A stretch of 37,798 nucleotides of DNA from a virus, in UHGV virus genome UHGV-1315295. The stretch is one strand, 5' to 3'. The position numbers and the translations under genes were made by a program. Shown here piece by piece: positions 1,363 to 17,501 of this stretch (positions are counted from its first letter, which is position 1; each line of letters begins with the position of its first letter). The notes under the pieces were generated by a model. That model saw nothing but the letters and a program-made list of their open reading frames with translations, was not told where the DNA came from and ran no database searches.

Positions 1363-4300
1363 ATGGTCAGTCAAACCAATGAACAAGCATTAGAGTCGGC
1401 CATTGAGAAATGTCTGGCTGGGATCAGTACTGAAGAGCTCAAAGAGGGGCTGAGTCAGCAGTCACTGGGTGCTGGATACTTCATTGGTGCTGCTAGTGAC
1501 TTTAATATGCAATATGCCATTGATGAACGTTTTTTCTGGCAATTTCTGCAAAAGACACAAGAAGTAGAGTTGGCCAAACTGCAAAAGAACAACCCCTCAG
1601 ATTGGCAACGTAAGTTACTCGAACGATTTGACCGACTGATTAAGAAGCATGGCATTCTTCATTTACTTAAGAAAGGGCTAAGCGTAGACGATGCTCATTT
1701 CAATTTGCTCTATCCAGCCCCTTTGGCAAGTAGTAGTGAGAAGGTAAAGCAAAACTTTGCAGATAACGTGTTTAGTTGTACTCGCCAAGTGCGCTATTCC
1801 ATGGTAAATCCCCTACAAGAAATCGACATGGTATTGTTTATCAACGGAATACCCTTGATAACGCTGGAGTTGAAGAACGCATGGACCGGGCAAACAGCAC
1901 GTTATCACGGCCAAAAGCAGTATCGAGATGATCGGGATGCAACTCAGCCATTGCTGACCTTTGGCCGCTGCCTAGTGCATATGGCGGTCGATACCGACGA
2001 AGTGTATATGACCACCAAGTTATCAGGTAGCAGTACATTCTTCTTGCCGTTCAATAAAGGTCACAATCTTGGACAAGGCAACCCGCCGAATCCATCTGGC
2101 CATAAAACGGCATACCTATGGCAAGAAGTATTCACTAAAGACAGCTTGGCGAATATTATTCAGCATTTTGTGCGTCTGGATGGGTCAAGCAAAGATCCAT
2201 TACCCAAGCGAACCCTGTTCTTTCCTCGATACCATCAATTGGATGTGGTGAGAAAATTAGTAGACCATGCCGCCCAGCACGGTGTCGGTCAGACTTACTT
2301 AATTCAACACTCAGCCGGTTCAGGTAAGTCTAACTCGATTACCTGGGCAGCTTATCAGCTAATTGAAACCTATCCTGCTTCGTCTGATGTGGCAGGCGGA
2401 AAAAGCTTGGAGCAGCCGTTGTTTGACTCTGTGATTGTGGTCACCGATAGACGCCTATTGGACAAGCAGCTGCGGGATAACATTAAAGAGTTTTCTGAAG
2501 TAAAGAACATTATTGCCCCAGCGAATAAGTCTTCTGAGCTTAAGCAGGCGCTGGAGAATGGCAAAAAGATTATTATAACGACGATTCAGAAATTCCCGTT
2601 CATTATTGATGGTATCGCCGATCTTAGTGACAAGCGCTTTGCAGTGATCATCGATGAAGCACACAGCTCACAGTCTGGTTCGGCGCATGACAATATGAAC
2701 CGAGCGATGGGCAAGTCTGAAGTCGAAGAGGCAGAAGATGCTCAGGATAAAATCCTTCAGGCGATGAGATCGCGTAAGATGCGCGGGAATGCGTCGTACC
2801 TGGCATTTACAGCGACACCAAAAAACAGCACTTTGGAGAAATTTGGTCAACGCCAAGAAGATGGCTCTTACAAGCCGTTTCACTTGTATTCGATGAAACA
2901 AGCCATTGAAGAAGGCTTCATCTTGGATGTGCTGGCAAATTATACGACGTACAAAAGTTATTATGAGATTGAGAAATCAATTGCTGATAACCCTGAGTTT
3001 GATACCAAAAAGGCGCAGAAAAAACTCAGAGCTTATGTAGAACGAAGCCAGCAAACAATTGATATCAAGGCAGAGATTATGCTGGAGCATTTTGTTCCGC
3101 ATGTCGTGAATACGAAAAAGCTCAAAGGTAAAGGTAAAGGAATGGTGGTCACTCAAAATATTGAGGCGGCCATTCGATACTACAAAGCGATAAGGCGAAT
3201 ACTTGAGGAGCAAGGAAACCCGTTTAAAGTTGCCATTGCTTTCTCAGGAACCAAAGAAGTTGATGGTATTGAATATACCGAAGCAGATATTAATGGTTTT
3301 GCCGAGTCAGATACCAAAGATATGTTTGATACCGATGAGTATCGACTTTTAGTGGTTGCTAACAAGTATCTGACTGGGTTTGACCAGCCTAAGCTTTGCG
3401 CCATGTATGTAGATAAGAAGCTCGCCAGTGTCTTGTGTGTTCAGGCGCTATCTAGGCTCAATCGCAGTGCACCTAAGCTAGGGAAGAAAACAGAAGACTT
3501 GTTTATCCTGGATTTTTTCAACTCGGTTGAAGATATTCAATCAGCATTCGATCCTTTCTATACAGCAACGTCATTGTCCCAAGCTACAGATATAAACGTA
3601 CTGCACGAGTTGAAAGATGAAATGGACGATGTCGGTGTGTACGAGTGGTATGAAGTTGAAGACTTTGTGACGCGTTATTTCAAGAATGAAGACGCCCAAA
3701 CACTCAGTCCAATCATTGATATTGCCGCAGCGCGGTTTGACCATGAACTAGATCTTGAAGCTGAAGCTAAAGTGGACTTTAAGATTAAAGCCAAACAGTT
3801 CGTTAAAATCTATGGGCAGATGGCTTCTATCATGCCTTATGAAATGGTCAGCTGGGAAAAACTGTTTTGGTTCCTGAAGTTTTTAATACCGAAATTGAAA
3901 GTGGAAGATCCCGATGCTAATGCTATTGATGAGCTTCTCGATTCTGTCGATCTGAGTTCATACGGTTTGCAACGTGTGAAGCTTAACCACAGCATTAAAC
4001 TTAGTGACCAAGAAGCGGAGCTTGATCCTCAAAATCCGAACCCACGTGGGGTGCATGGCGGTGAAAAAGAAACTGACCCGCTGGATGAAATCATTCGCAC
4101 ATTTAATGAGCGATGGTTCCAGGGCTGGAGTGCCACACCTGAAGAGCAAAAGGTTAAGTTCGTGAACATCGCTGAAAGTATCCGCAATCACCCTGACTTC
4201 GAATCGAAATACAAAAACAACCCAGATCCCCATAATCGAAATTTGGCCTTCGAAAAAATGCTCAAGGAAATCATGCTGCAACGCCGTAAAGATGAACTTG

Positions 4301-4380
4301 AGCTCTACAAGTTGTTCGCAGGAGATTCAGCATTTAAAGCCTCGTGGACGCAAAGTATGCAACGAATGGTGGGTAGGTAG
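1363..4380 (+). CDS. hsdR: Type I restriction enzyme R subunit (HsdR), DEAH-box helicase/nuclease
   Basis: 1005 aa; N-terminal nuclease motif [18 protein letters not shown]; Walker A GSGKSNS; DEAH box IIDEAHSS; size and order typical of HsdR. Confidence 0.9.
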
Positions 4381-4394
4381 AAAGGAGTGATGGT

Positions 4395-5080
<686 letters not shown>

Positions 5081-5260
5081 CCACTTCATCTACACTCGCG
5101 GCATTGGAAGCAAAGATATGGTCGTCTGGCACCTGATGCACATTGATAAGGCTATCAACCACACGCTGGAGAAGTTCTTTCCACCAGCCTGAACACAATG
5201 ATTGTGCGCCTTATAGCGCCCATTAAGATAGATAAGTACTTACCAATAAGGAGAAAACAC

Positions 5261-5536
5261 ATGAAGACTTTGGTTCGCATTTCATCTAGTACCGACTATG
5301 ACGTTTACCCGTTGTTCATGATCAAGTGCGACGGGCTGAACGATGAAGAAATTCAAGCGGCAATTGAACGCAATCTAGTTGAATACACAGGAATGGATGC
5401 GGATTCTATTTATATCGATGATGACGGTGTTTGTTGGCACAACGGTAGCTGCTGGTACGTCGACGACACAATGCTGGTAAGCGATGAAGACGCGGCCCAT
5501 CTTGAGCGCATTTTGGGTATCAGCACTTTTGAGTGA
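5261..5536 (+). CDS. Hypothetical small acidic protein (91 aa)
   Basis: ATG 5261 preceded by AGGAG; ORF track frame; start context AGGAGAAAACACATG shared with other genes in the window. Confidence 0.45.
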   Translation: MKTLVRISSSTDYDVYPLFMIKCDGLNDEEIQAAIERNLVEYTGMDADSIYIDDDGVCWHNGSCWYVDDTMLVSDEDAAHLERILGISTFE

Positions 5537-6949: not shown

Positions 6950-8005
6950 CTATTTGCGAGCCTTTGCCTTGCGCAGCTCTTCGAGAATCGCCAGTTCTTC
7001 CTTGCTCAACATGACCATTTCCCCGTCTTTTTCTTCAGGGGCAACATCGATAATGTCCTCCGGATCATCACCTGGCAAGATATCTTCTGGCTCTTCAGGC
7101 GTAGCCATAGATGGCGGCAGTGCCGAACGTAACTTCGGCCGTCTATAGTGGATGACGAAGTAGACCGAGCTGCCGCGTTTCACTTCAGTGTAATCGAGAT
7201 AGCCGATCTCTCGCAGCTGCTCCATCGCCTTCCTGACTGTCGCATTCTGGGTAATGGTGCGGCTGGTTAAGTTAAGTCTGGCGCGTAAGCGAGCCAATGA
7301 GATTGGCGCCGGGTCTGGTGGCAAACTTTCAATGAAGGTGTAGAGCGCCTGCGCGGATTCTTTTCTGGAGAGTTCGTTGATGGCCCGAAGTTGCAAAAGC
7401 ACCTTTTTGTCGAACTGGTAAAGTTCGAAAATCTTAGGATCGGCCTTCAGTTCGACCGTGTCATTCTTGGTACTGTACTTTGCCGTCTGCACAAGGTGCG
7501 TAACGTAATACTCTTCAGAGCCTTTGCTGCGGAATGAGATGGTGTTTGTGGCGATACGACTTAGAGAGCTGTCCAGGCGCTTACGTAACTTCGCGGACGA
7601 TCTGGCTGTTGGTATGCCACAAAGTCTGACGAACTCGACGAACGGCAACGTGACGGTGTCACCAACAACCTTGTGCTTGGCGAACGCGTGGATGATGCCC
7701 ACCCATGTTTTGAAATCGTTATCCATATCAAGACGAAGACCAGCAATCCTTATATCCTCGTACCCTTCGGCTTTGGCCAGAGACAGCTGTTTGAGTTCAG
7801 CGGAGGCGTCCATAGAGACCATTTGCCCCTTTCTACCCCTGGATGTCGATTTCAGCGTCGGAACGAAGAGACCAAGACGCATCAGAGCAACAGGTTGAAC
7901 TGTGTTGTTGGTGTTAGGAACTAACGTAACAACTTCGCCGGTCTTTTTGTCTGTTTCGGAAAATGCTTCGCTTATCGCAATGTTTTTATTGTCGTTTACG
8001 CTCAT
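6950..8005 (-). CDS. repA: Replication initiator RepA (P1/IncY-type iteron-binding initiator)
   Basis: 351 aa; blocks [64 protein letters not shown] match my recollection of P1 RepA; flanked on both sides by iterons. Confidence 0.8.
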
Positions 8006-8446: not shown

Positions 8447-8551
8447 TACTCACTACAGTGGATACCGACTACTCTCCAGAGAGGTTGTTTTGCTCTTCAT
8501 AGCGGTTATTATGCTCTCTACAGTGGTTATTTTGCTCCCTATAGTGGATAG
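8447..8551. repeat. Iteron cluster 2 (5 copies), a second origin-like module
   Basis: TACTCACTACAGTGGATA, CTCTTCATAGCGGTTAT, CTCTCTACAGTGGTTAT, CTCCCTATAGTGGATAG plus one degenerate copy. Confidence 0.7.
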
Positions 8552-8590
8552 TAACCCCTTCTCAAGCCAGTAACCGCAAGCGCTGGAGAC

Positions 8591-8648
8591 GATCGGGGAT
8601 CTCTTTTGATCTTCTGTAGGATCTCTCTGGGGATCTAAATATTGGATC
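8591..8648. promoter_or_regulatory. GATC cluster 2: six GATC sites in 58 bp
   Basis: GATC at 8591, 8598, 8608, 8620, 8632, 8645; the flank resembles the 8205-8280 segment (duplicated module). Confidence 0.5.
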
Positions 8649-8747
8649 GGACCTGTGAATAAAGTGAATAAGTAAACAGGCATTTGCAAACTCCGGTGCG
8701 CCTTATCCGTTATCGTTGCCCCGGACAAAATTATTTGAACAAGAATT

Positions 8748-9392
8748 ATGGATCTTAAACGCACGCGCTGGGTTCGCCGTCTTGAAGATGGCTCCTACAC
8801 CATTGAATCAAACACTAGTCTGAACAAACTGAAGTTGCTCTGCGACCTTTGCGGCATTGCTTCGAAATGCCCGATTAACGAAACCCGGCTTAAACTCCAC
8901 GACGCCGGTGCGCATTTCCACCTAAACAGCTGCATACGTTACGTGCCACTACTAGCATTTCGTAAACCGATCATCGGATTGGATGCTCCCTACTTCAACA
9001 CACTGCGCTCTGGTGTCACTTGGCGAGATCGTGTCGAACCTGGCAAACTCGTTTGTCTGGTTGAAGCTGATACCGGAAATATCATCCGGTTCGGGAGAGT
9101 TGATAAGGTCTACTCAGGCCCGGTGGATGAAATGCTGCGGAAACACAGCCGATTTAACCATCTCTGCATGGGCGGAGAGAAGATTGAGAAGGTTGGCGAA
9201 GTAATTCGCAAATCTTACGGACACTTTCTGAATGATAACAGCCTTCTGACAGCCATTTACATTCGCCATGTCGATCGGGAGTTCGACACGGAGTATCACA
9301 GTGTTGAAGAGTTGAATCTTGTAGACCCTCGTCCAAAAGCTGGGGTAATAGACATCAGCAGAGCGCGTCAGAAGCCCTCAGAGACGTTTTAA
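8748..9392 (+). CDS. Hypothetical protein (214 aa)
   Basis: ORF track; first gene after the origin-like region. Confidence 0.5.
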   Translation: MDLKRTRWVRRLEDGSYTIESNTSLNKLKLLCDLCGIASKCPINETRLKLHDAGAHFHLNSCIRYVPLLAFRKPIIGLDAPYFNTLRSGVTWRDRVEPGKLVCLVEADTGNIIRFGRVDKVYSGPVDEMLRKHSRFNHLCMGGEKIEKVGEVIRKSYGHFLNDNSLLTAIYIRHVDREFDTEYHSVEELNLVDPRPKAGVIDISRARQKPSETF

Positions 9393-9788
9393 AGGCAAAC
9401 TCATGCTTTTTACCGGGCATAAAATATGGTGTCTTAGAAAGACACTGAGAGCTTTAGGGATTAATGCATGAGTGAATTTTATTCAAGAGCAGAAACTGTG
9501 GCCGACGGATGCGTTTGAAGACGACGCACGCAAACGCCGTAGATGTCATCTCACAACTTCACCGTCCGTTCTCCTTTTTCATTTCTTGTCATCAGTAAAT
9601 GACTGCTCTCATAAAATTGCTTGTGACGTTTAGAAATCGTTGCTGCCCTATCTGATAGGTATTTACTTACTTATTTTTTTGTCATTATCATGTGCCTTTA
9701 TATTCTTTTGTGTTCCGTGTTGTCTGGGTTGTATGCCTCTTATGCACGCTTAGAATTTGTATCAAAATAACCACAAAGGAAAAGACAC

Positions 9789-10874
9789 ATGACATTGCCA
9801 TACGGGGTAATATCAGATCCCCATTATCATCGTTGGGATGCTTTTGCGACAACAAACGCTGACGGGCTTAACTCTCGGCTGGAGATCCAACTGGACGCTA
9901 CGAAGGAGGCGGCCAAAGCGATGAAAGCTGCTGGCTGTAAGCACATGCTGGTAGCTGGTGATACCTTCCATGTTCGCGGTGCTATATCACCTTCCGTTCT
10001 GCATTTCGTGACCGAAACTTACGAGTGGATCATCAAAGAGTTGGGTCTCAAGGTGGTAATGCTGGCTGGCAACCACGACCTCGAAACCAACAATTCCGTA
10101 TACAGCGCCAATGCAGCAGCCTCTCTGCGCTCAATCGGTGTGGAAATCGTCTGCGGCAAACGTCCTCATTCCATCAAAATGGGCGACGTAACCGTCCATC
10201 TGATTAGCTGGCGTAATAACCACGCAGAACTTATCAGCGATCTCAAAACGCTGCGTTCCGGGCTGGATGGTGACAACCATGATGTTGTTGTACATACCTC
10301 AATCAACAAAGCGATCCCCACCATGCCCGATGTCGGCATCGACGCACAGGAACTGAAAGATATCGGCTTCCGTTTATTGTTGTCCGGGCACTACCACAAC
10401 CACAAAGAAGTGCTGCCTGGAGTGGTAAGTATCGGGGCGCTGACACACCAGAATTGGGGGGATGTTGGTTCACTGGCCGGCTTCATGATCGTCAAACCGG
10501 ACGGCTCATTCACTCACCACGAAACCTCGGCACCTAAATTCGTGAACCTTGAGGACGATGTAGATGACGATCAGATTCGCGGCAACTACGTGCGCTTCCG
10601 TGCCGTTGTTGAGAGCGATGAAGAAGGCATCAAACTTCAGAACGTCCTGAAAACAATGGGCGCGAAGGGTGTCGTCTGCAACTTCATTCGCAAGGCATCG
10701 ATGATGGAAGGCGCTGCCAGTACTGCGGAAACCAGCAAAATTGACAGCCTGGGCGAGTCCGTTGCGGCGTACTGCAAGATCGTTCACGACACTGACGGTG
10801 GCTTCGACCTGAGCAAGCTGGACATACTGTGTCAGGAGATCTTGACCGAAGCAGAGAGTGCGGAGGCTGTGTGA
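9789..10874 (+). CDS. sbcD: SbcD/Mre11-family metallophosphoesterase nuclease
   Basis: Motifs DPHYH, GDTFH, GNHD, GHYH typical of calcineurin-like phosphoesterase nucleases; immediately upstream of an SbcC/Rad50-like ATPase. Confidence 0.75.
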   Translation: MTLPYGVISDPHYHRWDAFATTNADGLNSRLEIQLDATKEAAKAMKAAGCKHMLVAGDTFHVRGAISPSVLHFVTETYEWIIKELGLKVVMLAGNHDLETNNSVYSANAAASLRSIGVEIVCGKRPHSIKMGDVTVHLISWRNNHAELISDLKTLRSGLDGDNHDVVVHTSINKAIPTMPDVGIDAQELKDIGFRLLLSGHYHNHKEVLPGVVSIGALTHQNWGDVGSLAGFMIVKPDGSFTHHETSAPKFVNLEDDVDDDQIRGNYVRFRAVVESDEEGIKLQNVLKTMGAKGVVCNFIRKASMMEGAASTAETSKIDSLGESVAAYCKIVHDTDGGFDLSKLDILCQEILTEAESAEAV

Positions 10875-10915
10875 GGCAACGTTATTATGGGAGCTTTCGA
10901 GAGTTTGCCATCGTG

Positions 10916-11107
10916 ATGAAAAAACTTCAAAAAGGCCAGACGGTTATGTTTCACAAGCCATACCCTTCAGGAGGAAATCCCGTAGCGTTTTATCTTGGAA
11001 GGCTAACCAGAAAAGGCTTATTGAATCGCAGATCCTTCCCCGCGCATACGGAGTTCAGATTGAAAGATGGTCAAAAGTTAACACACGATATCAGAGGTGT
11101 TATATGA
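10916..11107 (+). CDS. Possible small protein (63 aa) in the sbcD-sbcC gap, stop overlapping the sbcC start
   Basis: ATG 10916 in frame with track ORF 10829-11107; TGA 11105-11107 overlaps ATG 11104; weak RBS. Confidence 0.25.
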   Translation: MKKLQKGQTVMFHKPYPSGGNPVAFYLGRLTRKGLLNRRSFPAHTEFRLKDGQKLTHDIRGVI

Positions 11108-13020
11108 AGTTTTTAAAGCTCCAGGTTGAAAATTTTATGGCAATCGCCAGCGCAGAAGTCGAGTTAGACCAGCGTGGACTGGTGCTGATCCAGGGTGTGA
11201 ACAGTGGCGATACGTCTGCTGCCAGCAATGGCGCCGGGAAATCCACTCTGATGAATAGCTTAATGTGGTGTCTGTATGGTGAGACTGCACATGGCGTCAA
11301 AGGCGATGATGTGCTGTCGACGGGCCATGAGAAGAACTGCCGTGTGATGGTTACAGTTGAAGACGAAGGTAAGAAATACGCGATCATTCGCCATCGTAAA
11401 CACAAAGAGTTCAAGAACCGACTAATCGTCCGTGGTGAAGACGGTGATATGACCAAAGGCAAGGACACGCTGACACAGACGTTCGTAGAACGTCTGATTG
11501 GGGCATCGAAAGAGGTGTTCATGGCGTCCATCTACGCCAGTCAGGAAGCGATGCCAGATCTGCCCGGTATGTCCGACAAGAGCCTCAAAACCATCGTTGA
11601 AGAAGCTGCTGGCGTCGACCGATTGACGCGAGCCTATGCCATTGCCCGCGAGCGTGCTAATGCAGCTGCCGCACGTATGGACGTTACCAAATCCAAAATG
11701 GACGCCTGTCTCACGCTTATCGAGACTGCACAGTCAGAGATTGAGGCGGCCAAAGCGTCCTCTGAAAGCTGGGAGCGCGATCGCGGCGAGCGTCTGGACA
11801 AGGCCCGAGCCGATTTGGCTGGCGCGGAGGTAACACTGTCTGAAGTCGAGATGGAAATTCGCTCGCTGCCGGAACAGATCCGTGATACGGAAAACGCGAT
11901 TGCTGGCGAACGCAGCAAGCTGGCCTCCAAAGAAGAGCATGACGCCAAACTGCTGAAGGTGCGCAGTGCTATTACTGAGATCCACTCAAGCATCCGTACT
12001 TCAGAAGCGGCACAGAACGAGTCGATAAACCGTGCTCGCTCGTTTAAAACCAAAGCTGAAGAGGTCAGCACAAAGATCGGGGCACCCTGCATTACGTGCG
12101 GAAAGCCCTACTGCGAAGAAGATTTATCCACGGTGAAGGAGAGCTTCATTGAACAAGCGCGCAATGAGATCGGCCTTGCGCAGACATCAGCAGCGGCAGT
12201 GGCTCAACACAAGGCTCGTCTTGAGAAAGCGCTCGGTATCGAGTCTGCACTGGTCGCAGCCACACCCGACGTCTCAGAAATCATCTCCACAATAGAACGC
12301 CTGACCAATGAGCTAAGTGCGCTGCGTCATCGCGAACGTGAAGTTGTGGCCGTCGAAGCGATGGTTGCGCGGGCGCGTACTGAAGTGAATCGCATCATGG
12401 CGGAAGCAAACCCATTTCTGGCCGTTATTAAGCGCCATGAAGACAACCTGGCTGCCAATAAATCTAATCATGCAGTACTTAAAAATGAGTTAAAGAGCAT
12501 TCAGGAACAGGCTCTGTTGCTGGAGAAGGCCCGCCAGGTTTACTCCCCAGCAGGCGTGCGTTCACACATCCTGACCTCCGTTACGCCTTTCCTGAACATC
12601 AGGACTGCGGAGTATCTCAACACGCTGTCGGACGGCAATATCGTTGCCGAATGGTCGACAATGGAGACAACGAAGAAAGGTGAGTATCGCGACAAATTCA
12701 ATATCAGCGTAATCAAAACAGGCTCCAGCAAATCCTTCCAGACTTTGTCTGGTGGTGAGAAGCGTAAGGTACGTATTGCGTGCTCTCTGGCTTTGCAGGA
12801 TCTGGTTGCCAGTCGCGCCAGTAAGAATATCGAGCTATTTATCGGTGATGAAATTGACGACGCGCTCGACACAGCCGGTCTGGAGCGTCTCATGGGGATT
12901 CTGGAAGCCAAAGCGCGTGAACGTGGCACAGTGATGATCATCTCCCACAAAGAGATGAAATCGTGGTTCCGGGAAATTATCACTGTCGAAGTTAAAGAGG
13001 GGCGCAGCTATGTCGTTTAA
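11104..13020 (+). CDS. sbcC: SbcC/Rad50-family ATPase with zinc-hook CxxC
   Basis: Start MKFLKLQVENF with GAGGTG RBS; Walker A GAGKST; CITCGKPYC hook near 12086-12112; ABC signature LSGGEKRK; Walker B LFIGDEIDD. The track start 10858 gives an implausible N-terminal extension. Confidence 0.75.
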   Translation: MKFLKLQVENFMAIASAEVELDQRGLVLIQGVNSGDTSAASNGAGKSTLMNSLMWCLYGETAHGVKGDDVLSTGHEKNCRVMVTVEDEGKKYAIIRHRKHKEFKNRLIVRGEDGDMTKGKDTLTQTFVERLIGASKEVFMASIYASQEAMPDLPGMSDKSLKTIVEEAAGVDRLTRAYAIARERANAAAARMDVTKSKMDACLTLIETAQSEIEAAKASSESWERDRGERLDKARADLAGAEVTLSEVEMEIRSLPEQIRDTENAIAGERSKLASKEEHDAKLLKVRSAITEIHSSIRTSEAAQNESINRARSFKTKAEEVSTKIGAPCITCGKPYCEEDLSTVKESFIEQARNEIGLAQTSAAAVAQHKARLEKALGIESALVAATPDVSEIISTIERLTNELSALRHREREVVAVEAMVARARTEVNRIMAEANPFLAVIKRHEDNLAANKSNHAVLKNELKSIQEQALLLEKARQVYSPAGVRSHILTSVTPFLNIRTAEYLNTLSDGNIVAEWSTMETTKKGEYRDKFNISVIKTGSSKSFQTLSGGEKRKVRIACSLALQDLVASRASKNIELFIGDEIDDALDTAGLERLMGILEAKARERGTVMIISHKEMKSWFREIITVEVKEGRSYVV

Positions 13021-13756
13021 CTTGAGCCGCACGCAGTTTTTGCAGATGTTTGCCGTGATGCAGTCTATAAAGCTGATAAACAACCATACAGCAAAAGTAA
13101 CTCCGCCTGCACTTTTGTGGAAAAACGTAAACATCAGCGACGACCAGTTCTCGGTATTAACTAATCTATTGTCATCGACTCCTTTGATGCCGAGCTTGGC
13201 TAATCTGCCGTCAGGAAGCACTGCGCCGATCCTTATTAATCCATTTACGGAAGGTGGATATCTCCCACATTCTGGGCCGGGGTTCGTTGTGATTCCTGAA
13301 ACCGGAACGCTGAACATCCAAGAAAATGCACTCTTCAATGCAATGGAGACGCACATCAGCACCGCATTCACTAATCTAATTCGACACGCTAACGCACGCG
13401 CGGATCACGTTGCAATGCCGGGTGCTGCCTTCGCCAGCTTCTCTGTTGACTATGACCGGCACGCGCCAATTTCAAAGCGGGCGAAACTCTGCTTTTACGA
13501 GGAGGGATGTGAAGTAGCGATTATTGAAGTTCTCCTCCCCCACGTATTCAACGCGAATGAAAAGGCTGCGTGCCAACTTATTGACATCATGCGGCATTTC
13601 ATCGGCCAGAGCATGATCGATGCAGACATTGCTGCAGGCGTTCTGATCAACGATAGCATTCACGTTGTTAGCGACATTCCGAAGCCGCCAACTCGCGAGC
13701 CGGAGAAGACACTTGAACAGAAACTAATGGAATGCCCAACCTGGGCTACGTGGTAA
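13010..13756 (+). CDS. Hypothetical protein (248 aa)
   Basis: ORF track; GAGGGG RBS; start overlaps the sbcC stop. Confidence 0.5.
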   Translation: MSFNLSRTQFLQMFAVMQSIKLINNHTAKVTPPALLWKNVNISDDQFSVLTNLLSSTPLMPSLANLPSGSTAPILINPFTEGGYLPHSGPGFVVIPETGTLNIQENALFNAMETHISTAFTNLIRHANARADHVAMPGAAFASFSVDYDRHAPISKRAKLCFYEEGCEVAIIEVLLPHVFNANEKAACQLIDIMRHFIGQSMIDADIAAGVLINDSIHVVSDIPKPPTREPEKTLEQKLMECPTWATW

Positions 13757-13767
13757 GGAGACCAAAA

Positions 13768-14508
13768 GTGAGAGGAAGAGCGACAAAATTAAGAAAAGAT
13801 GCGAAACCTATCAATCCCGACGATTTCGACGGAAATTTCATTAGAGAGTTGGAGCCAATATTTGATTCAAGGGGGCGTAAACGCCGAATTGTTGAGCTTG
13901 AATGCTTTATCTGCGGTCATCGATTCTCTGCAAACCTTGAGAACGCGAAGCGAGTCAGACAGAAGACCTGCTCAAACAAATGTGCCGGAATATATCGCCA
14001 GAACGCAGAATATAAAGTCATGGAAAACCCTCTGTACTGGACTTGGGCAAGTATGAAGGCGCGTTGTAACAATCCAAATCGGGCAAGATACGAAAAGTAT
14101 GGAGGACGGGGAATATCTTACGCCATCGGGTTCGAGGATTTTGATAATTTTTACAGGTATGTTTCCGTACTTGAGGGCTATCCGTTTTCCGATACGGAGA
14201 GAGTTGTAGAGGGGGTTACGCTTGATCGCATCGACTCCAGCAAGGGATATGAACCAGGGAATCTGAGGTGGGCTGACAAGCACGTCCAGAGTGCAAATAA
14301 ACAAGGGAAAGTGGATGGTAGTACGTCGAAGTTTACTGGCGTTCATTACTGCAAAACGAACAAGGTTTGGGTTGCTAGAGTTGTGTGGAAAGGAGAGTGT
14401 GTCTTCTTGTATCAATGTCACGATGAATTGGAGGCTTACTTAGCGCGTAAGCGATTTATCGAAGAGCACAATCTACCGCATTTTGTTGAAATGGAGGTCA
14501 CAGAGTGA
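13768..14508 (+). CDS. HNH homing endonuclease with AP2-like C-terminal DNA-binding domain
   Basis: HNH-type block VTLDRIDSSKGYEPGNLRWADKHVQSANK; C-terminal GVHYCKTNKVWVARVVWKGE resembles AP2 domains of phage HNH endonucleases; GTG 13768 has a consensus AAGGAG 7 nt upstream (track start 13732 is an alternative). Confidence 0.55.
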   Translation: MRGRATKLRKDAKPINPDDFDGNFIRELEPIFDSRGRKRRIVELECFICGHRFSANLENAKRVRQKTCSNKCAGIYRQNAEYKVMENPLYWTWASMKARCNNPNRARYEKYGGRGISYAIGFEDFDNFYRYVSVLEGYPFSDTERVVEGVTLDRIDSSKGYEPGNLRWADKHVQSANKQGKVDGSTSKFTGVHYCKTNKVWVARVVWKGECVFLYQCHDELEAYLARKRFIEEHNLPHFVEMEVTE

Positions 14509-15074
14509 AAAAAGTAATCAAAGTTGCAGGTCTCGATCCATCTCTGTCAAATTTTGGCGTTGCCATCGGAGAAATAGAACTGGATTCAGGTGCATTGCAG
14601 GTCAATAAGTTGCATCTCATTGAGACGAAAGCTGGTGATACGAAAAAGCAAGTTCGCGTTAACAGTGACGATATGCGGCGGTTGAACGAGATTTGGCGTG
14701 GTATTAAGCCACTGATTGACCAAGTTCATTTAGTGTTCTGTGAACTGCCAGTAGGCAGTCAATCTGCTAGAGCGATGGTTTCTTATGGTGGTTGTCTTGG
14801 CGTACTGGCGTGTGTGGATAAGCCACTGATACAGGTCACGCCAAACGAGATTAAGTACTATGTCGGGAATAAGCTGACTACGTCGAAAGAAGAGATCATT
14901 CAGTGGGCTACGCAGAAGCAGCCAAACGCCCCGTGGTTGCGCCGGAAGCAATCGGGCAAGGAAGTGCTGGTGAATAAAAACGAGCACCTTGCGGACGCTG
15001 TCGCATCGATTTACACCGGTATGCAAACTGATCAATTCCGTCAGGTTCGCGATGTTCTTGCTGGAATTTTATAA
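14505..15074 (+). CDS. RuvC-like Holliday junction resolvase (putative)
   Basis: N-terminal GLDPSLSNFGVAIG and C-terminal EHLADAVA resemble the RuvC/YqgF-fold acidic catalytic motifs; start overlaps the HNH stop. Confidence 0.45.
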   Translation: MKKVIKVAGLDPSLSNFGVAIGEIELDSGALQVNKLHLIETKAGDTKKQVRVNSDDMRRLNEIWRGIKPLIDQVHLVFCELPVGSQSARAMVSYGGCLGVLACVDKPLIQVTPNEIKYYVGNKLTTSKEEIIQWATQKQPNAPWLRRKQSGKEVLVNKNEHLADAVASIYTGMQTDQFRQVRDVLAGIL

Positions 15075-15112
15075 GTTGATAATTGATAGGTAAGTGCTTA
15101 TCTATTACCATG

Positions 15113-15138
15113 AGGCCACTATATATAGTGGTCTTTTT
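15113..15138 (+). terminator. Rho-independent terminator
   Basis: AGGCCACTAT-atat-ATAGTGGTCT hairpin followed by TTTTT. Confidence 0.55.
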
Positions 15139-15339
15139 AATTGGGCTACACATAATAAGCATCGTAAAACGTAACGCCCACCGAGCCGCTGCCAGCTGCA
15201 TGAAGCGCTGACAAAGTTCGCTGTCGATTGCACTGGCCCGAGCCAGTTCGAATACCTCTAAGCCGAGTTTAACCACTTTGTGGCCTGGCGCTGCTGGGTC
15301 AAAATTGGCGTATCAAAAGAAGTCTAAAGGAAAGAAAAC

Positions 15340-16218
15340 ATGAAATTTACGAAACTGACCGATCATCTGAAACTTGCCGCAGACAAACTCGTGGGGTTTA
15401 AACCAGAGCCTTACGAGTTGAATCCCGGTTTCGGCAAGACAACGGAAAGCATCTACCTGATGGTTGACCAGTTCCACACACTGTTTCAGCACCCACGCCG
15501 TGCCATTCCAGATCCGGCATTACTGCGTCTGCGTGCCAAGCTGATCCACGAAGAAGCAGTTACCGAGGGCATCCCGGCAGCCAAAAATGGGGATATGACG
15601 GCACTGCTGGACGCGATGGCTGACTTCCTTTACGTGGGCGTCGGCACAATGGTGGCCATCAAAGGCGGCATCTCGACGGGCATGAGTTACTACACCCAAG
15701 AGCAGAGTGTTGATCGCTTCATCCACACCATCATGGTTCCGGGCAACACGGTCTTTGACGATATGGCTATCCCGTTTGAAGAAGCAAAAGAAGCTGCATT
15801 AATGCTGAATGCGCTGGCTGACAAACTTGAAGCGAAGCCGATAAGCGATTCCGAATTGGTGCAGGAGCTGCGCCGCGTGATGAACAAAATCTACGTTGCC
15901 TGCATGATGACCTACCGTCTGGCTGATTTTCTCGGAATCGATATTGTTGAGCTGGTGGCAGAAATCCACCGTTCCAACATGACCAAGCTGTGGCCGGCTG
16001 ACGCCGAAGAGCGTCGTGTGGCGGTAGAGAATTGCAAATATGACAAGGAAGACCTGGGCTTCCGCCATGCTGAAGGGACTGACATGATGATCGGTTTCAG
16101 GGTTTCTGATGGCAAGATCCTCAAATCTCCCACCTACAGCGATGTGGATCTGACTTGCTTTGTTGAGAAGGCGAAGTCCTCATCTCTTTACGAGATGGTA
16201 AAAAATAATTGTAAGTGA
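15340..16218 (+). CDS. MazG-like nucleoside triphosphate pyrophosphohydrolase (putative)
   Basis: HEEAVTEG...LLDAMADFLYVGVG resembles the MazG/HisE EExxE...D motif; a second related half follows; nucleotide-metabolism context. Confidence 0.4.
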   Translation: MKFTKLTDHLKLAADKLVGFKPEPYELNPGFGKTTESIYLMVDQFHTLFQHPRRAIPDPALLRLRAKLIHEEAVTEGIPAAKNGDMTALLDAMADFLYVGVGTMVAIKGGISTGMSYYTQEQSVDRFIHTIMVPGNTVFDDMAIPFEEAKEAALMLNALADKLEAKPISDSELVQELRRVMNKIYVACMMTYRLADFLGIDIVELVAEIHRSNMTKLWPADAEERRVAVENCKYDKEDLGFRHAEGTDMMIGFRVSDGKILKSPTYSDVDLTCFVEKAKSSSLYEMVKNNCK

Positions 16219-16280
16219 GTACTTATCATTATATATTGCCTTGGCGTGTTTTATTGTCCAAGTTCTTAATTGCTCATTGC

Positions 16281-16310
16281 AATGGTGGCCGAAGAGCCAC
16301 CATTTTTTTT
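16281..16310 (+). terminator. Rho-independent terminator
   Basis: AATGGTGGC-cgaagag-GCCACCATT followed by TTTTTTTT. Confidence 0.65.
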
Positions 16311-16385
16311 ACTCCCCTCCTAGCCTTACACACTTCTGACAGATAAACTTGTATAAAATAATAGGTATGTAATTACTTATCTTGT

Positions 16386-17501
16386 GTGAGGTTGATTTTG
16401 TCTATCCTACTGAATCGAGACTTTACGAACGGTCAGTTTGCCAGTGGTTCGTATGCCAAAGTGGTTGAAACGGTGCTCAACACTGGCGTTCACGCGGGTG
16501 ATCGCACCGGAACCGGCACAAAAAGTGTTTCATATGTCCCTTCCTACTACATGCTGACGGGCGGATCTGTTCCACTTATCTCCGGAAAAGCCGTCAATCT
16601 GAAGCCGTTACTGGTTGAGCTGGAGTGGTATCTCAAAGGAACAGGCAACATCCAGTTCCTGAAAGACAATGGCGTCAAAATCTGGGATGTCTGGGCCGAT
16701 GAAAATGGCGATTTAGGCCCGGTCTATGGCAAGCAATGGCGTCGGTGGGAAGACACTCGCATCGTGAGCCATAGCGAGTATCTGCGCAAAATCGACACGT
16801 TCCGTGAGCGCGGGTACAAGGTCGAGGGGTATCTGGGCGTAAGTGAAGATCGCGTTGTGTTGTCCCGTGAAATTGACCAGCTACAGCGTATCGTTGACAC
16901 GCTTCGCACCAACCCTACAGATCGTCGCATCCTGCTGAATGCCTGGAATGTTGGCGAACTGGAAGATATGAAGCTGCCGCCATGCCATTTCGTGTTTTCA
17001 CTGTGGAGTCGCGAGCTGGACTTTGAGACCCGACTGACTATGGCCACCGACATTGGCATACAGCACAACCGCCACGGCCACGAGTCCATTTACACCCAGA
17101 TGCTGTGTCTTCTGGAAAGAGATGGCGGCATTACTGAGAACATGCTGGACGAGCTGGGCATCCCGAAACGCATTCTGAACTCATGCCTGGTTCAACGCAG
17201 TGTCGATACCTTTGTTGGTATGCCGTTCAACATCGCCGGTTACGGCATTCTCACCCACTTCCTCGCGAAGATCACCGGCCACATGGCTGGCGCATTCGTG
17301 CATTTTGGCTTTGACGTTCATCTCTACGACAACCACATGGAAGGCGTTGAGGAACTGATGAAGCGCGAGCCGCCCAAAGAGTCCGACCCGGTTGTCATCT
17401 TCCCGCATGAATGGGCCGAACTGGACGACTTCAAATGGGAAGGTGTGCAGGTGTGCGGCTACAGCCCTCTTCCGTGGATCAAGGTTCCAGTGGCGGTGTG
17501 A
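16386..17501 (+). CDS. thyA: Thymidylate synthase (ThyA) with internal insertions
   Basis: DRTGTGT, IWDVWADENGDLGPVYGKQWR, LPPCH, GMPFNIAGYGILTH and C-terminal IKVPVAV blocks; 371 aa, longer than bacterial ThyA; true start uncertain (GTG 16386 or TTG 16398). Confidence 0.85.
   Translation: MRLILSILLNRDFTNGQFASGSYAKVVETVLNTGVHAGDRTGTGTKSVSYVPSYYMLTGGSVPLISGKAVNLKPLLVELEWYLKGTGNIQFLKDNGVKIWDVWADENGDLGPVYGKQWRRWEDTRIVSHSEYLRKIDTFRERGYKVEGYLGVSEDRVVLSREIDQLQRIVDTLRTNPTDRRILLNAWNVGELEDMKLPPCHFVFSLWSRELDFETRLTMATDIGIQHNRHGHESIYTQMLCLLERDGGITENMLDELGIPKRILNSCLVQRSVDTFVGMPFNIAGYGILTHFLAKITGHMAGAFVHFGFDVHLYDNHMEGVEELMKREPPKESDPVVIFPHEWAELDDFKWEGVQVCGYSPLPWIKVPVAV

Follow-up and report, generated by a model that had tools for sequence, protein, structure and literature searches.

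We analyzed the virus genome UHGV-1315295 (37,798 nt, called the window below, whose coordinates are used unless stated otherwise), and our results indicate that the block of genes at 9789-15074 is a conserved operon of an SSU5-type phage-plasmid, devoted to DNA-end processing and junction resolution, which has been entered by a free-standing homing-endonuclease-type gene directly upstream of ruvC. We give this reading a probability of about 72%. Megablast identifies the window as an SSU5-like IncFIB phage-plasmid of Escherichia coli/E. fergusonii. The closest match, E. fergusonii pRHB41-C15_2, is 99.8% identical across the entire 5.9 kb, many E. coli plasmids are 99.3-99.6% identical to the region, and phage SSU5 aligns at 91% nucleotide identity in two pieces covering 78% of the query. 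Related sequence was found in 479 plasmid records from Escherichia, Enterobacter, Yersinia, Salmonella, Citrobacter, and others. The six open reading frames (ORFs) of a preliminary description of this stretch, which was made from the sequence alone, were all found at the positions it gave. They are all on the plus strand, as are the domains and signals discussed with them, and they form a one-direction block in which start and stop codons overlap or are closely spaced. The comparison with SSU5-like elements proposed in that description confirms a conserved gene order: sbcD, a 63-amino-acid (63-aa) gene, sbcC, a 248-aa orphan gene, and a ruvC-like gene follow one another in SSU5, pHCM2, Yersinia pestis plasmid records, and phage Cyrano, and the window is 88-100% identical to SSU5 over most of the block. 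The operon itself is ordinary and already known, the annotation of phage Cyrano having an SbcD-like protein, an SbcC-like protein, and a RuvC resolvase.

Insertion of the HNH gene at the start of ruvC

The inserted gene, referred to here as the HNH gene, lies at 13768-14508 and encodes a 246-aa protein from GTG 13768 (258 aa in the version starting at ATG 13732), which matches phrog_374 (E 1.8e-34) and other phrogs named "HNH endonuclease". In SSU5, pHCM2, and Cyrano, the stop codon of the 248-aa gene and the start codon of ruvC are separated by 9-12 nt and there is no HNH gene. Moreover, 220 plasmid records, from Enterobacter, Y. pestis, Salmonella, Citrobacter, and others, match a 699-bp probe of this junction without interruption. 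The existence of HNH-lacking relatives with an uninterrupted junction, which had been put forward as a check of the insertion, is thus established. The alignment of this junction in five elements shows how the gene is accommodated. The AGGAG at 13756-13760, which is the Shine-Dalgarno (SD) sequence of ruvC in the HNH-less relatives, is here the SD of the HNH gene, 7 nt upstream of GTG 13768, and the HNH start codon aligns with the ATG of SSU5 ruvC, which stands behind an identical AGGAG. In pTy004_01, a Salmonella Typhi plasmid, the codon equivalent to GTG 13768 is an ATG and is the annotated start, and homologues also begin at this position. Judged by these alignments, the start of the HNH gene is most likely GTG 13768. 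We also considered a start at ATG 13732, with which the gene would overlap the 248-aa gene, and rejected it, since the same in-frame ATG is found upstream of ruvC in the HNH-less SSU5 and is therefore incidental. With a start at 13768, the overlap between the 248-aa gene and the HNH gene is probably an artefact of start-codon choice. The 248-aa gene had been described as overlapping both of its neighbors, and of these two overlaps that with sbcC (11 nt) remains. At the other end, a GGAGG at 14493-14497, located within the 3' end of the HNH gene, is the SD of ruvC, and the HNH stop codon (TGA, 14506-14508) overlaps the ruvC GTG at 14505 in a GTGA. The 3' end of the HNH gene thus provides a new SD and an overlapping stop/start, so that ruvC stays expressed.

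The distribution of the HNH gene is sporadic. HNH DNA was detected in 41 of the 479 related plasmid records, 40 from Escherichia and one from Salmonella, and, among complete E. coli genomes, in 27 of 5426, where it is plasmid-borne every time and intact in 19. The gene is full in 31 of the 41 carriers, seven have the same 418-bp deletion of its 5' part, two have an internal deletion of about 570 bp, and one is truncated. The 418-bp deletion (seen in the relative L002, positions 4757-5088) corresponds to about 13768-14185 in the window. The deletion of about 570 bp (in the relative L003, 4646-4825) corresponds to about 13875-14444, and its endpoints share a GCGTAA microhomology. Both deletion alleles keep the 3' end of the HNH gene that carries the ruvC SD. 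These data show that the HNH gene was inserted at a fixed site, that its presence there is sporadic, with empty sites in close relatives, and that it is decaying in part of its own lineage via at least two independent deletions. A homologue with 61% identity occupies the same slot in L008 (Logan SRR5997683), a distant SSU5-like contig whose SbcCD proteins are 57% identical to those of the window. Homologues at 42-48% identity are present in N4-like phages in unrelated contexts, with no ruvC nearby.

The ruvC-like gene (14505-15074) encodes a 189-aa protein assigned as a Holliday-junction resolvase by phrog_159 (E 1.7e-53) and by its catalytic motif. No match to Pfam PF02075 was obtained for this protein, and the NCBIfam RuvC model (PRK00039) gave 17.3 bits (E 0.0032) for a cut-off of 163. 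When its profile was compared to the PDB, RuvC proteins were the sole matches, although weak ones (E 0.07-0.8), and among its homologues PF02075 is found on P0229 and P0272, while some bear the RefSeq name "RuvC family protein". The acidic tetrad is present in the RuvC order as D11, E80, H161, and D164, none of which varies among 25 homologues whose identity goes as low as 44%, and the alignment with 7w8d and 4ld0 places these residues at the GIDPG and HxADA motifs of RuvC. The phrog match and the invariant tetrad agree with the earlier proposal that a RuvC-like resolvase follows the SbcD/SbcC pair.

Beyond what had been described, the comparison with SSU5 shows that the insertion also replaced the first ~295 nt of ruvC. 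Nucleotide identity between the window and SSU5 falls to 53-69% in the first ~300 nt of this gene and then returns to 94-97%. At the protein level, residues 1-98 are 62% identical to SSU5 RuvC and residues 99-189 are 99% identical. Codons 1-98 show a synonymous divergence (pS) of 0.885, i.e., saturated synonymous sites, and a nonsynonymous divergence (pN) of 0.276, for 0.159 and 0.005, respectively, in codons 99-189. The gene is therefore chimeric, with a foreign 5' part and a resident 3' part, and the foreign segment retains the catalytic Asp and Glu. The window-type ruvC 5' allele was found in 40 plasmid records, and all 40 contain HNH DNA. SSU5, Cyrano, and L008 all stand at a similar distance from the RuvC N-terminus (57-62% identity), L008 being no closer than SSU5, and a tblastn search of plasmids with residues 1-98 returned no record at 65-90% identity.

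The constant linkage of the HNH gene to one RuvC N-terminal variant could have another meaning, namely that the HNH-like protein has been domesticated and works within the recombination module, for instance with the RuvC-like protein or SbcCD as its partner, and that the chimeric ruvC results from co-adaptation. The GTGA translational coupling to ruvC and the position of the homologue next to ruvC in L008 would fit such a role, for which a precedent exists in the HNH protein of HK97 that works with terminase (PMC10448857). We nevertheless regard it as quite unlikely, because the gene is absent from most relatives (the 220 records, SSU5, and Cyrano), 10 of the 41 carriers have lost or truncated it while retaining ruvC and its SD, and closer homologues also occur in N4-like phages, away from any ruvC.

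The plasmid pTy004_01 provides a case in which the insertion and the divergent ruvC segment are found together in another backbone. Outside the tract, nearly every 200-nt segment of pTy004_01 shows 97-100% identity to pHCM2. Its informative sites are pHCM2-like up to 13647, window-like between 13663 and 14796, and pHCM2-like again from 14813, with 121 window-like sites and one private site (14593) in the tract, which is 99% identical to the copy of the window. Site 13663 itself is uninformative since SSU5 also has a C there. This pattern indicates that a different backbone has received a tract of about 1.05-1.17 kb, which comprises the HNH gene and 292-308 nt of ruvC. In the window, the mobile tract corresponds to the HNH gene and the first 292 nt of ruvC (13768-14796), with a left breakpoint within 13648-13767 and a right breakpoint within 14797-14812. 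Judged by its site pattern, this single event is consistent with the footprint of homing with co-conversion of the flank.

Plain homologous recombination between co-resident SSU5-like elements, with the HNH gene as a passenger, could in principle produce both the pTy004_01 tract and the chimeric ruvC. Nuclease-free mosaic patches do occur in the same operon, such as that at 10830-11230, which is Cyrano-like and not SSU5-like, and one cross-backbone transfer is all that was seen. The tract is however minimal, its right edge being the first restored homology and its left edge lying within 120 nt of the gene, and nuclease genes located at exchange boundaries are a published pattern of phage homing endonuclease genes (HEGs) (PMC10448857). 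As plain recombination also leaves the precise capture of the ruvC start site unexplained, we consider it highly improbable as the whole explanation and retain the insertion of a homing-endonuclease-type gene.

The HNH-like/AP2 protein and a possible homing mechanism

The AlphaFold2 model of the HNH protein (predicted local distance difference test, pLDDT, of 86) shows four parts: a Cys-bearing β-strand domain, a helical region with an invariant YGGRGI, a strand-strand-helix unit at residues 151-178, and a three-strand-plus-helix unit at residues 192-233. The N-terminal domain (approximately residues 24-72, 13837-13983) contains the motif C46-x2-C49 ... C68-x3-C72, in which C46, C49, and C68 are invariant, and its β-strands span residues 24-56 in the model. 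Its profile gave weak matches to Elf1 zinc ribbons (E 0.0065), and we infer that it is a zinc ribbon. The C-terminal domain (residues 187-233, 14326-14466) is an AP2 DNA-binding domain, supported by both profile and structure, and the AP2 domain is all that Foldseek retrieved with the model. Among the homologues of the protein (7168 proteins at E<=0.001), many carry Pfam AP2, and HNH_3 is present on none of the 120 listed. A tblastn search matched 83 Vibrio phage records.

The candidate nuclease core (residues 150-178, 14215-14301) is a ββα unit resembling a His-Me finger, with the motif L-D153-R154-I-D ... Y161 ... G-N165-L-R-W ... Q174-x-x-N177, in which D153, R154, Y161, and N165 are invariant in 30 aligned family members. 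R154 presumably occupies the position of the general-base His of I-HmuI, an HNH_3 homing endonuclease, according to an alignment with the I-HmuI sequence whose offsets agree with those of the core profile alignment. The profile of the whole protein matched I-HmuI (1U3E) weakly across the ββα motif (E 0.025), and the profile of the core alone gave chance-level matches in the PDB (ribosomal uL3, E 0.07; I-HmuI, E 0.6). The best nuclease fold match of the model is PacI, to which no match was found at the sequence level. Direct scans of the HNH protein gave no Pfam HNH_3 match even at E 10 and no Pfam AP2 match, and those with NCBIfam and PDB sequences returned nothing or sub-threshold matches. 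The nuclease assignment is thus weaker than that of the AP2 domain, and the domain is not a canonical HNH. As a consequence, the claim that a freestanding HNH endonuclease with an AP2-like domain is inserted in the operon stands for the insertion and for the AP2 domain, and has to be amended for the nuclease domain, which has Arg in place of His and no HNH_3. Similarly, the hidden Markov model searches suggested in the preliminary description recover the Mre11 and Rad50 families directly, while Pfam HNH_3, AP2, and RuvC give no direct match and profiles or structure were needed for these.

PacI is a nuclease devoid of this His that uses a tyrosine located in the loop between the two strands, and groups without both residues are probably inactive (PMC5714182). 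On this precedent, the invariant loop Tyr makes a PacI-like active site plausible for the HNH protein. The mechanism we propose is the following. In a cell containing both HNH+ and HNH- elements, the HNH protein would bind DNA via its AP2 and Cys-rich domains and would cut or nick the HNH-less allele. The break would fall within the first part of ruvC, or at or near the point where the 248-aa gene gives way to ruvC, and the HNH+ copy would then serve as the repair template, bringing in the HNH gene together with the divergent ruvC flank, until homology resumes near 14800. The divergent ruvC segment would make the carrier immune to its own enzyme, with which the low identity of the carrier ruvC 5' part (53-69% at the nucleotide level) is consistent. 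Catalysis may follow the PacI pattern, the loop tyrosine substituting for the absent histidine. More tentatively, and with clear doubt, the Asp-Arg/loop-Tyr ββα domain, whose motif was checked in 30 of the 7168 homologues, may be the mark of a large group of phage homing endonucleases with a PacI-like tyrosine mechanism in place of the canonical His general base. This member may target the region of the ruvC start or catalytic Asp, driving the replacement of half of a resolvase gene among phage-plasmids from different enterobacterial genera.

The same residues can be read differently. The HNH-like/AP2 protein could be a sequence-specific DNA binder without nuclease activity, for instance a transcriptional silencer or an anti-defence factor of the CasPR kind (zinc finger plus AP2), carried as cargo, its patchy distribution being due to ordinary gain and loss. 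The replacement of the catalytic His by Arg in 30 of 30 aligned members and the absence of a Pfam HNH match go in this direction, as does the combination of a Cys-rich N-terminus with AP2, reminiscent of CapR+AP2 proteins that were shown to be purely DNA-binding (preprint 10.64898/2026.02.23.707548). In addition, inactivity has been suggested for two His-Me groups that have neither His nor Tyr (PMC5714182). However, the ββα core retains an invariant Asp, loop Tyr, and Asn, as for a PacI-type active site, the same slot is filled in the distant relative L008, and the position at the start site, the synonymously saturated flank, and the decay where the gene is fixed correspond to the life cycle of a selfish endonuclease and not to that of a useful cargo. 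We therefore hold a simple DNA-binding role to be unlikely and favor a homing-endonuclease-type protein.

Several observations weigh against this interpretation of the operon and its insertion. The position of the general-base His is an Arg (D153-R154) that is invariant in the 30 family members, and both the cleavage activity of the HNH protein and its target site are putative. The donor lineage of the HNH/ruvC cassette was not found in our searches. The lone transfer seen in pTy004_01 could equally be ordinary homologous recombination between co-resident elements. Finally, the counts of promoter and terminator matches in the region are not above shuffle expectation.

The recombination operon and its surroundings

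The first gene of the operon (9789-10874) encodes a 361-aa SbcD/Mre11-like metallophosphoesterase nuclease subunit. It matches Pfam Metallophos PF00149 (38.7 bits for a cut-off of 21.5) and phrog_100 "SbcD-like" (E 4.6e-96), and all the phosphoesterase motifs were found (DPH10, GDTFH57, GNHD94, and GHYH200). The protein is 98% identical to that of SSU5 and 88% to that of Cyrano. Its scores with curated models are far below their cut-offs (NCBIfam TIGR00619, 12.6 vs 77.65 bits; PRK10966, 12.3 vs 450), indicating a distant, phage-type member of the SbcD family. The 638-aa product of sbcC (11104-13020) is a Rad50-like ABC-type ATPase, whose start is an internal ATG of the ORF at 10858-13020. AAA_23 (61.3 bits) and SMC_N (49.2 bits) both score above their cut-offs, and the protein matches phrog_77 (E 3e-164) and the PDB Rad50 structure 3qf7 (E 1.4e-10). 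The NCBIfam Rad50 match (E 4e-26) is significant, yet below the equivalog cut-offs. A Walker A motif (NGAGKST), a CITC zinc hook at residues 329-332, exactly in the middle of the protein, an LSGGE at 548, and a Walker B motif (LFIGDE, 578) were all identified. A coiled coil with this CxxC hook at its centre would separate the two halves of the ABC-type ATPase head. Altogether, the Pfam, phrog, and PDB evidence validates the description of these two proteins as an Mre11/Rad50-type pair. Their role in recombination-dependent replication is suggested by analogy with T4 gp46/47.

Between these two genes lies a small basic 63-aa gene (10916-11107), a homologue of SSU5_074 that matches phrog_37951 (E 3.9e-33). 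It is nested in a longer GTG ORF (10829-11107), and its start is uncertain, with GTG 10829, 10868, and 10913 as alternatives. Its stop codon (11105-11107) overlaps the sbcC ATG at 11104 by 4 nt (ATGA). This frame has been conserved without stops in SSU5, pHCM2, and Cyrano, where stops interrupt the other frames, and the comparison with SSU5 gives a pN of 0.19 for a pS of 0.70. The ATGA overlap and this pN/pS contrast support the previous suggestion of an ORF translationally coupled to sbcC, and from the sequence comparisons we conclude that it is a real gene under selection. An exhaustive search of 1.84 billion proteins yielded seven representatives. Three of them are long proteins that we treated as probably spurious, because at least one is a repeat protein and none has an informative Pfam assignment. 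Direct Pfam, NCBIfam, and PDB sequence scans of the 63-aa protein returned nothing or sub-threshold matches. The gene is absent from the distant relative L008, in which sbcD and sbcC overlap directly (positions 2300-5298), with no small ORF between them. The mosaic patch at 10830-11230 includes the 63-aa gene and extends on either side of it into the last part of sbcD and into about the first 40 codons of sbcC. Its identity to SSU5 is 67-77%, vs 90-95% for its flanks, whereas it is close to Cyrano, and the pS of the 63-aa gene is 0.18 vs Cyrano.

Downstream of sbcC, the ORF at 13010-13756, which overlaps the end of sbcC by 11 nt, encodes a lineage-restricted 248-aa protein that is 94% identical to its SSU5 counterpart. 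No relatives were detected outside SSU5-like elements and no fold match was obtained; direct Pfam, NCBIfam, and PDB sequence scans gave nothing or sub-threshold matches. The protein occupying this slot in L008 has no detectable homology to that of the window. One possible role for the 248-aa orphan, whose gene is translationally coupled to sbcC, is that of a new accessory factor of phage SbcCD.

Upstream of sbcD, two overlapping sigma-70-like promoter matches were found at 9662-9706; they are weak, and since the promoter match count is not above shuffle expectation, their position alone is suggestive. A terminator-like hairpin matching the consensus, with a 10-bp stem and a T-rich tail, is located at 15112-15135, 38 nt past the ruvC stop codon. 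An Rfam scan of 8500-16500 revealed no RNA family.

Several neighboring genes were also noted. A 214-aa protein is encoded at 8748-9392, just upstream of sbcD, a position in which it is conserved. It belongs to phrog_2105, has no Pfam match, and its Cyrano counterpart is annotated as an ASCH RNA-binding-domain protein. Further upstream, a Rep3-type initiator is encoded on the minus strand (6950-8005), preceded by a DUF4268 protein (185-1348) and a type I restriction R-subunit-like helicase-nuclease with HSDR_N, SWI2_SNF2, and ResIII domains (1363-4380). The latter two genes look like phage-plasmid defence cargo. Downstream of the operon are a MazG/PRA-PH-like nucleotide pyrophosphohydrolase (15340-16218) and then a thymidylate synthase (16386-17501), genes that are likewise present in L008, after nrdAB. 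In SSU5, pHCM2, Cyrano, and L008, nrdA/nrdB directly follow ruvC, and a search for these two genes gave zero matches anywhere in the window. Homology with pHCM2 ends at 15195 and restarts at 15219 with 96% identity, corresponding to a clean loss of about 3.5 kb in the window. Transposon-related genes were seen near the operon in two other elements: an IS3-family transposase is located in or beside the ruvC of plasmid NZ_CP101235.1, and a TnpB gene lies immediately 5' of sbcD in pNT1F34 (L003, 1-416).

Significance and comparison with known systems

The basic picture of the region, an ordinary module, is unchanged by this work. What is new is modest and consists of the filled/empty/decayed polymorphism, the chimeric resolvase gene, the passage from an E. 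coli-type backbone into one of the S. Typhi pHCM2 type, and the Asp-Arg/loop-Tyr signature; our literature search retrieved no paper linking SSU5-type phage-plasmids with homing endonucleases. SSU5-like phage-plasmids are frequently found in clinical isolates and evolve as mosaics; pHCM2, the Y. pestis plasmid records, and many plasmids of E. coli, Klebsiella, and Enterobacter belong to them. The locus offers a clean natural case of what would be a selfish endonuclease gene reshaping such an element, by capturing a start site, carrying in half of an essential-looking resolvase gene, crossing backbones, and decaying. It also provides defined empty and filled sites with which DNA cutting by His-less, Tyr-bearing HNH-like/AP2 proteins could be tested.

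The closest known systems are the SSU5-type relatives themselves. The genes SSU5_073-077, those of pHCM2 and of the Y. pestis plasmid records, and CYRAN_65-68 of Cyrano have the same order and orientation as in the window, and the amino acid identity with SSU5 is 98% for SbcD, 96% for SbcC, and 94% for the 248-aa orphan. These relatives differ from the window by the absence of the HNH gene, by the 5' third of their ruvC, in which nucleotide identity to the window is 53-69%, and by the presence after ruvC of nrdAB, which the window lacks. Compared with T4 gp46/gp47, T5 D13/D12, and E. coli SbcCD, the operon similarly places a nuclease side by side with a zinc-hook SMC-like ATPase, for which a role in end processing is expected. 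In contrast to these Mre11/Rad50 pairs, the sequences are distant, the nuclease gene comes first, the 63-aa gene is intercalated, and the 248-aa orphan is coupled downstream.

As for the inserted gene, SegF, SegG, and MobE of T4-type phages are free-standing endonucleases that perform intronless homing; they belong to the GIY-YIG or canonical HNH families and their cleavage sites are mapped. The locus of the window resembles these systems by the insertion between conserved genes, the diverged and presumably immune neighbor, and the apparent co-conversion of the flank. It differs from them in being known from sequence alone, and in a divergent flank that is unusually large (~38% amino acid change over 98 codons). 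With I-HmuI, the HNH protein shares the spacing (D)(H/R)xD...N-L-R-W...N. I-HmuI however has Asp-His where Asp-Arg is found here, is intron-encoded, and contains NUMOD/helix-turn-helix modules instead of AP2. PacI, which belongs to His-Me finger group 20 (PMC5714182), differs in being a 142-residue chain in the solved structure and in having no AP2, and Y161 may be the counterpart of the PacI Tyr. CasPR proteins, which we compared by description only, contain a CxCxC...CxC motif (preprint 10.64898/2026.02.23.707548), unlike the CxxC...CxxxC of the window protein, in which a ββα module moreover lies between the Cys domain and AP2.

Finally, the HNH protein can be compared to the IPA-HNH HEGs (AP2-associated HNH genes of ICP1-like phages, with ICP1 gp59, gp115-116, and gp209 as founding proteins), which combine an atypical HNH missed by Pfam HNH_3 with a C-terminal AP2 (Barth, Dunham & Seed 2023, PMC10448857). 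In that study, 431 IPA-HNH HEGs were identified in 240 phage genomes, with nuclease genes at the boundaries of genetic exchange. The gene of the window is alike in being free-standing beside conserved DNA-metabolism genes, at an exchange boundary, and with inactivated copies, whereas its protein additionally carries a Cys-rich domain at the N-terminus and is encoded by a phage-plasmid instead of a lytic phage. By its architecture, the HNH-like/AP2 protein fits the IPA-HNH class.

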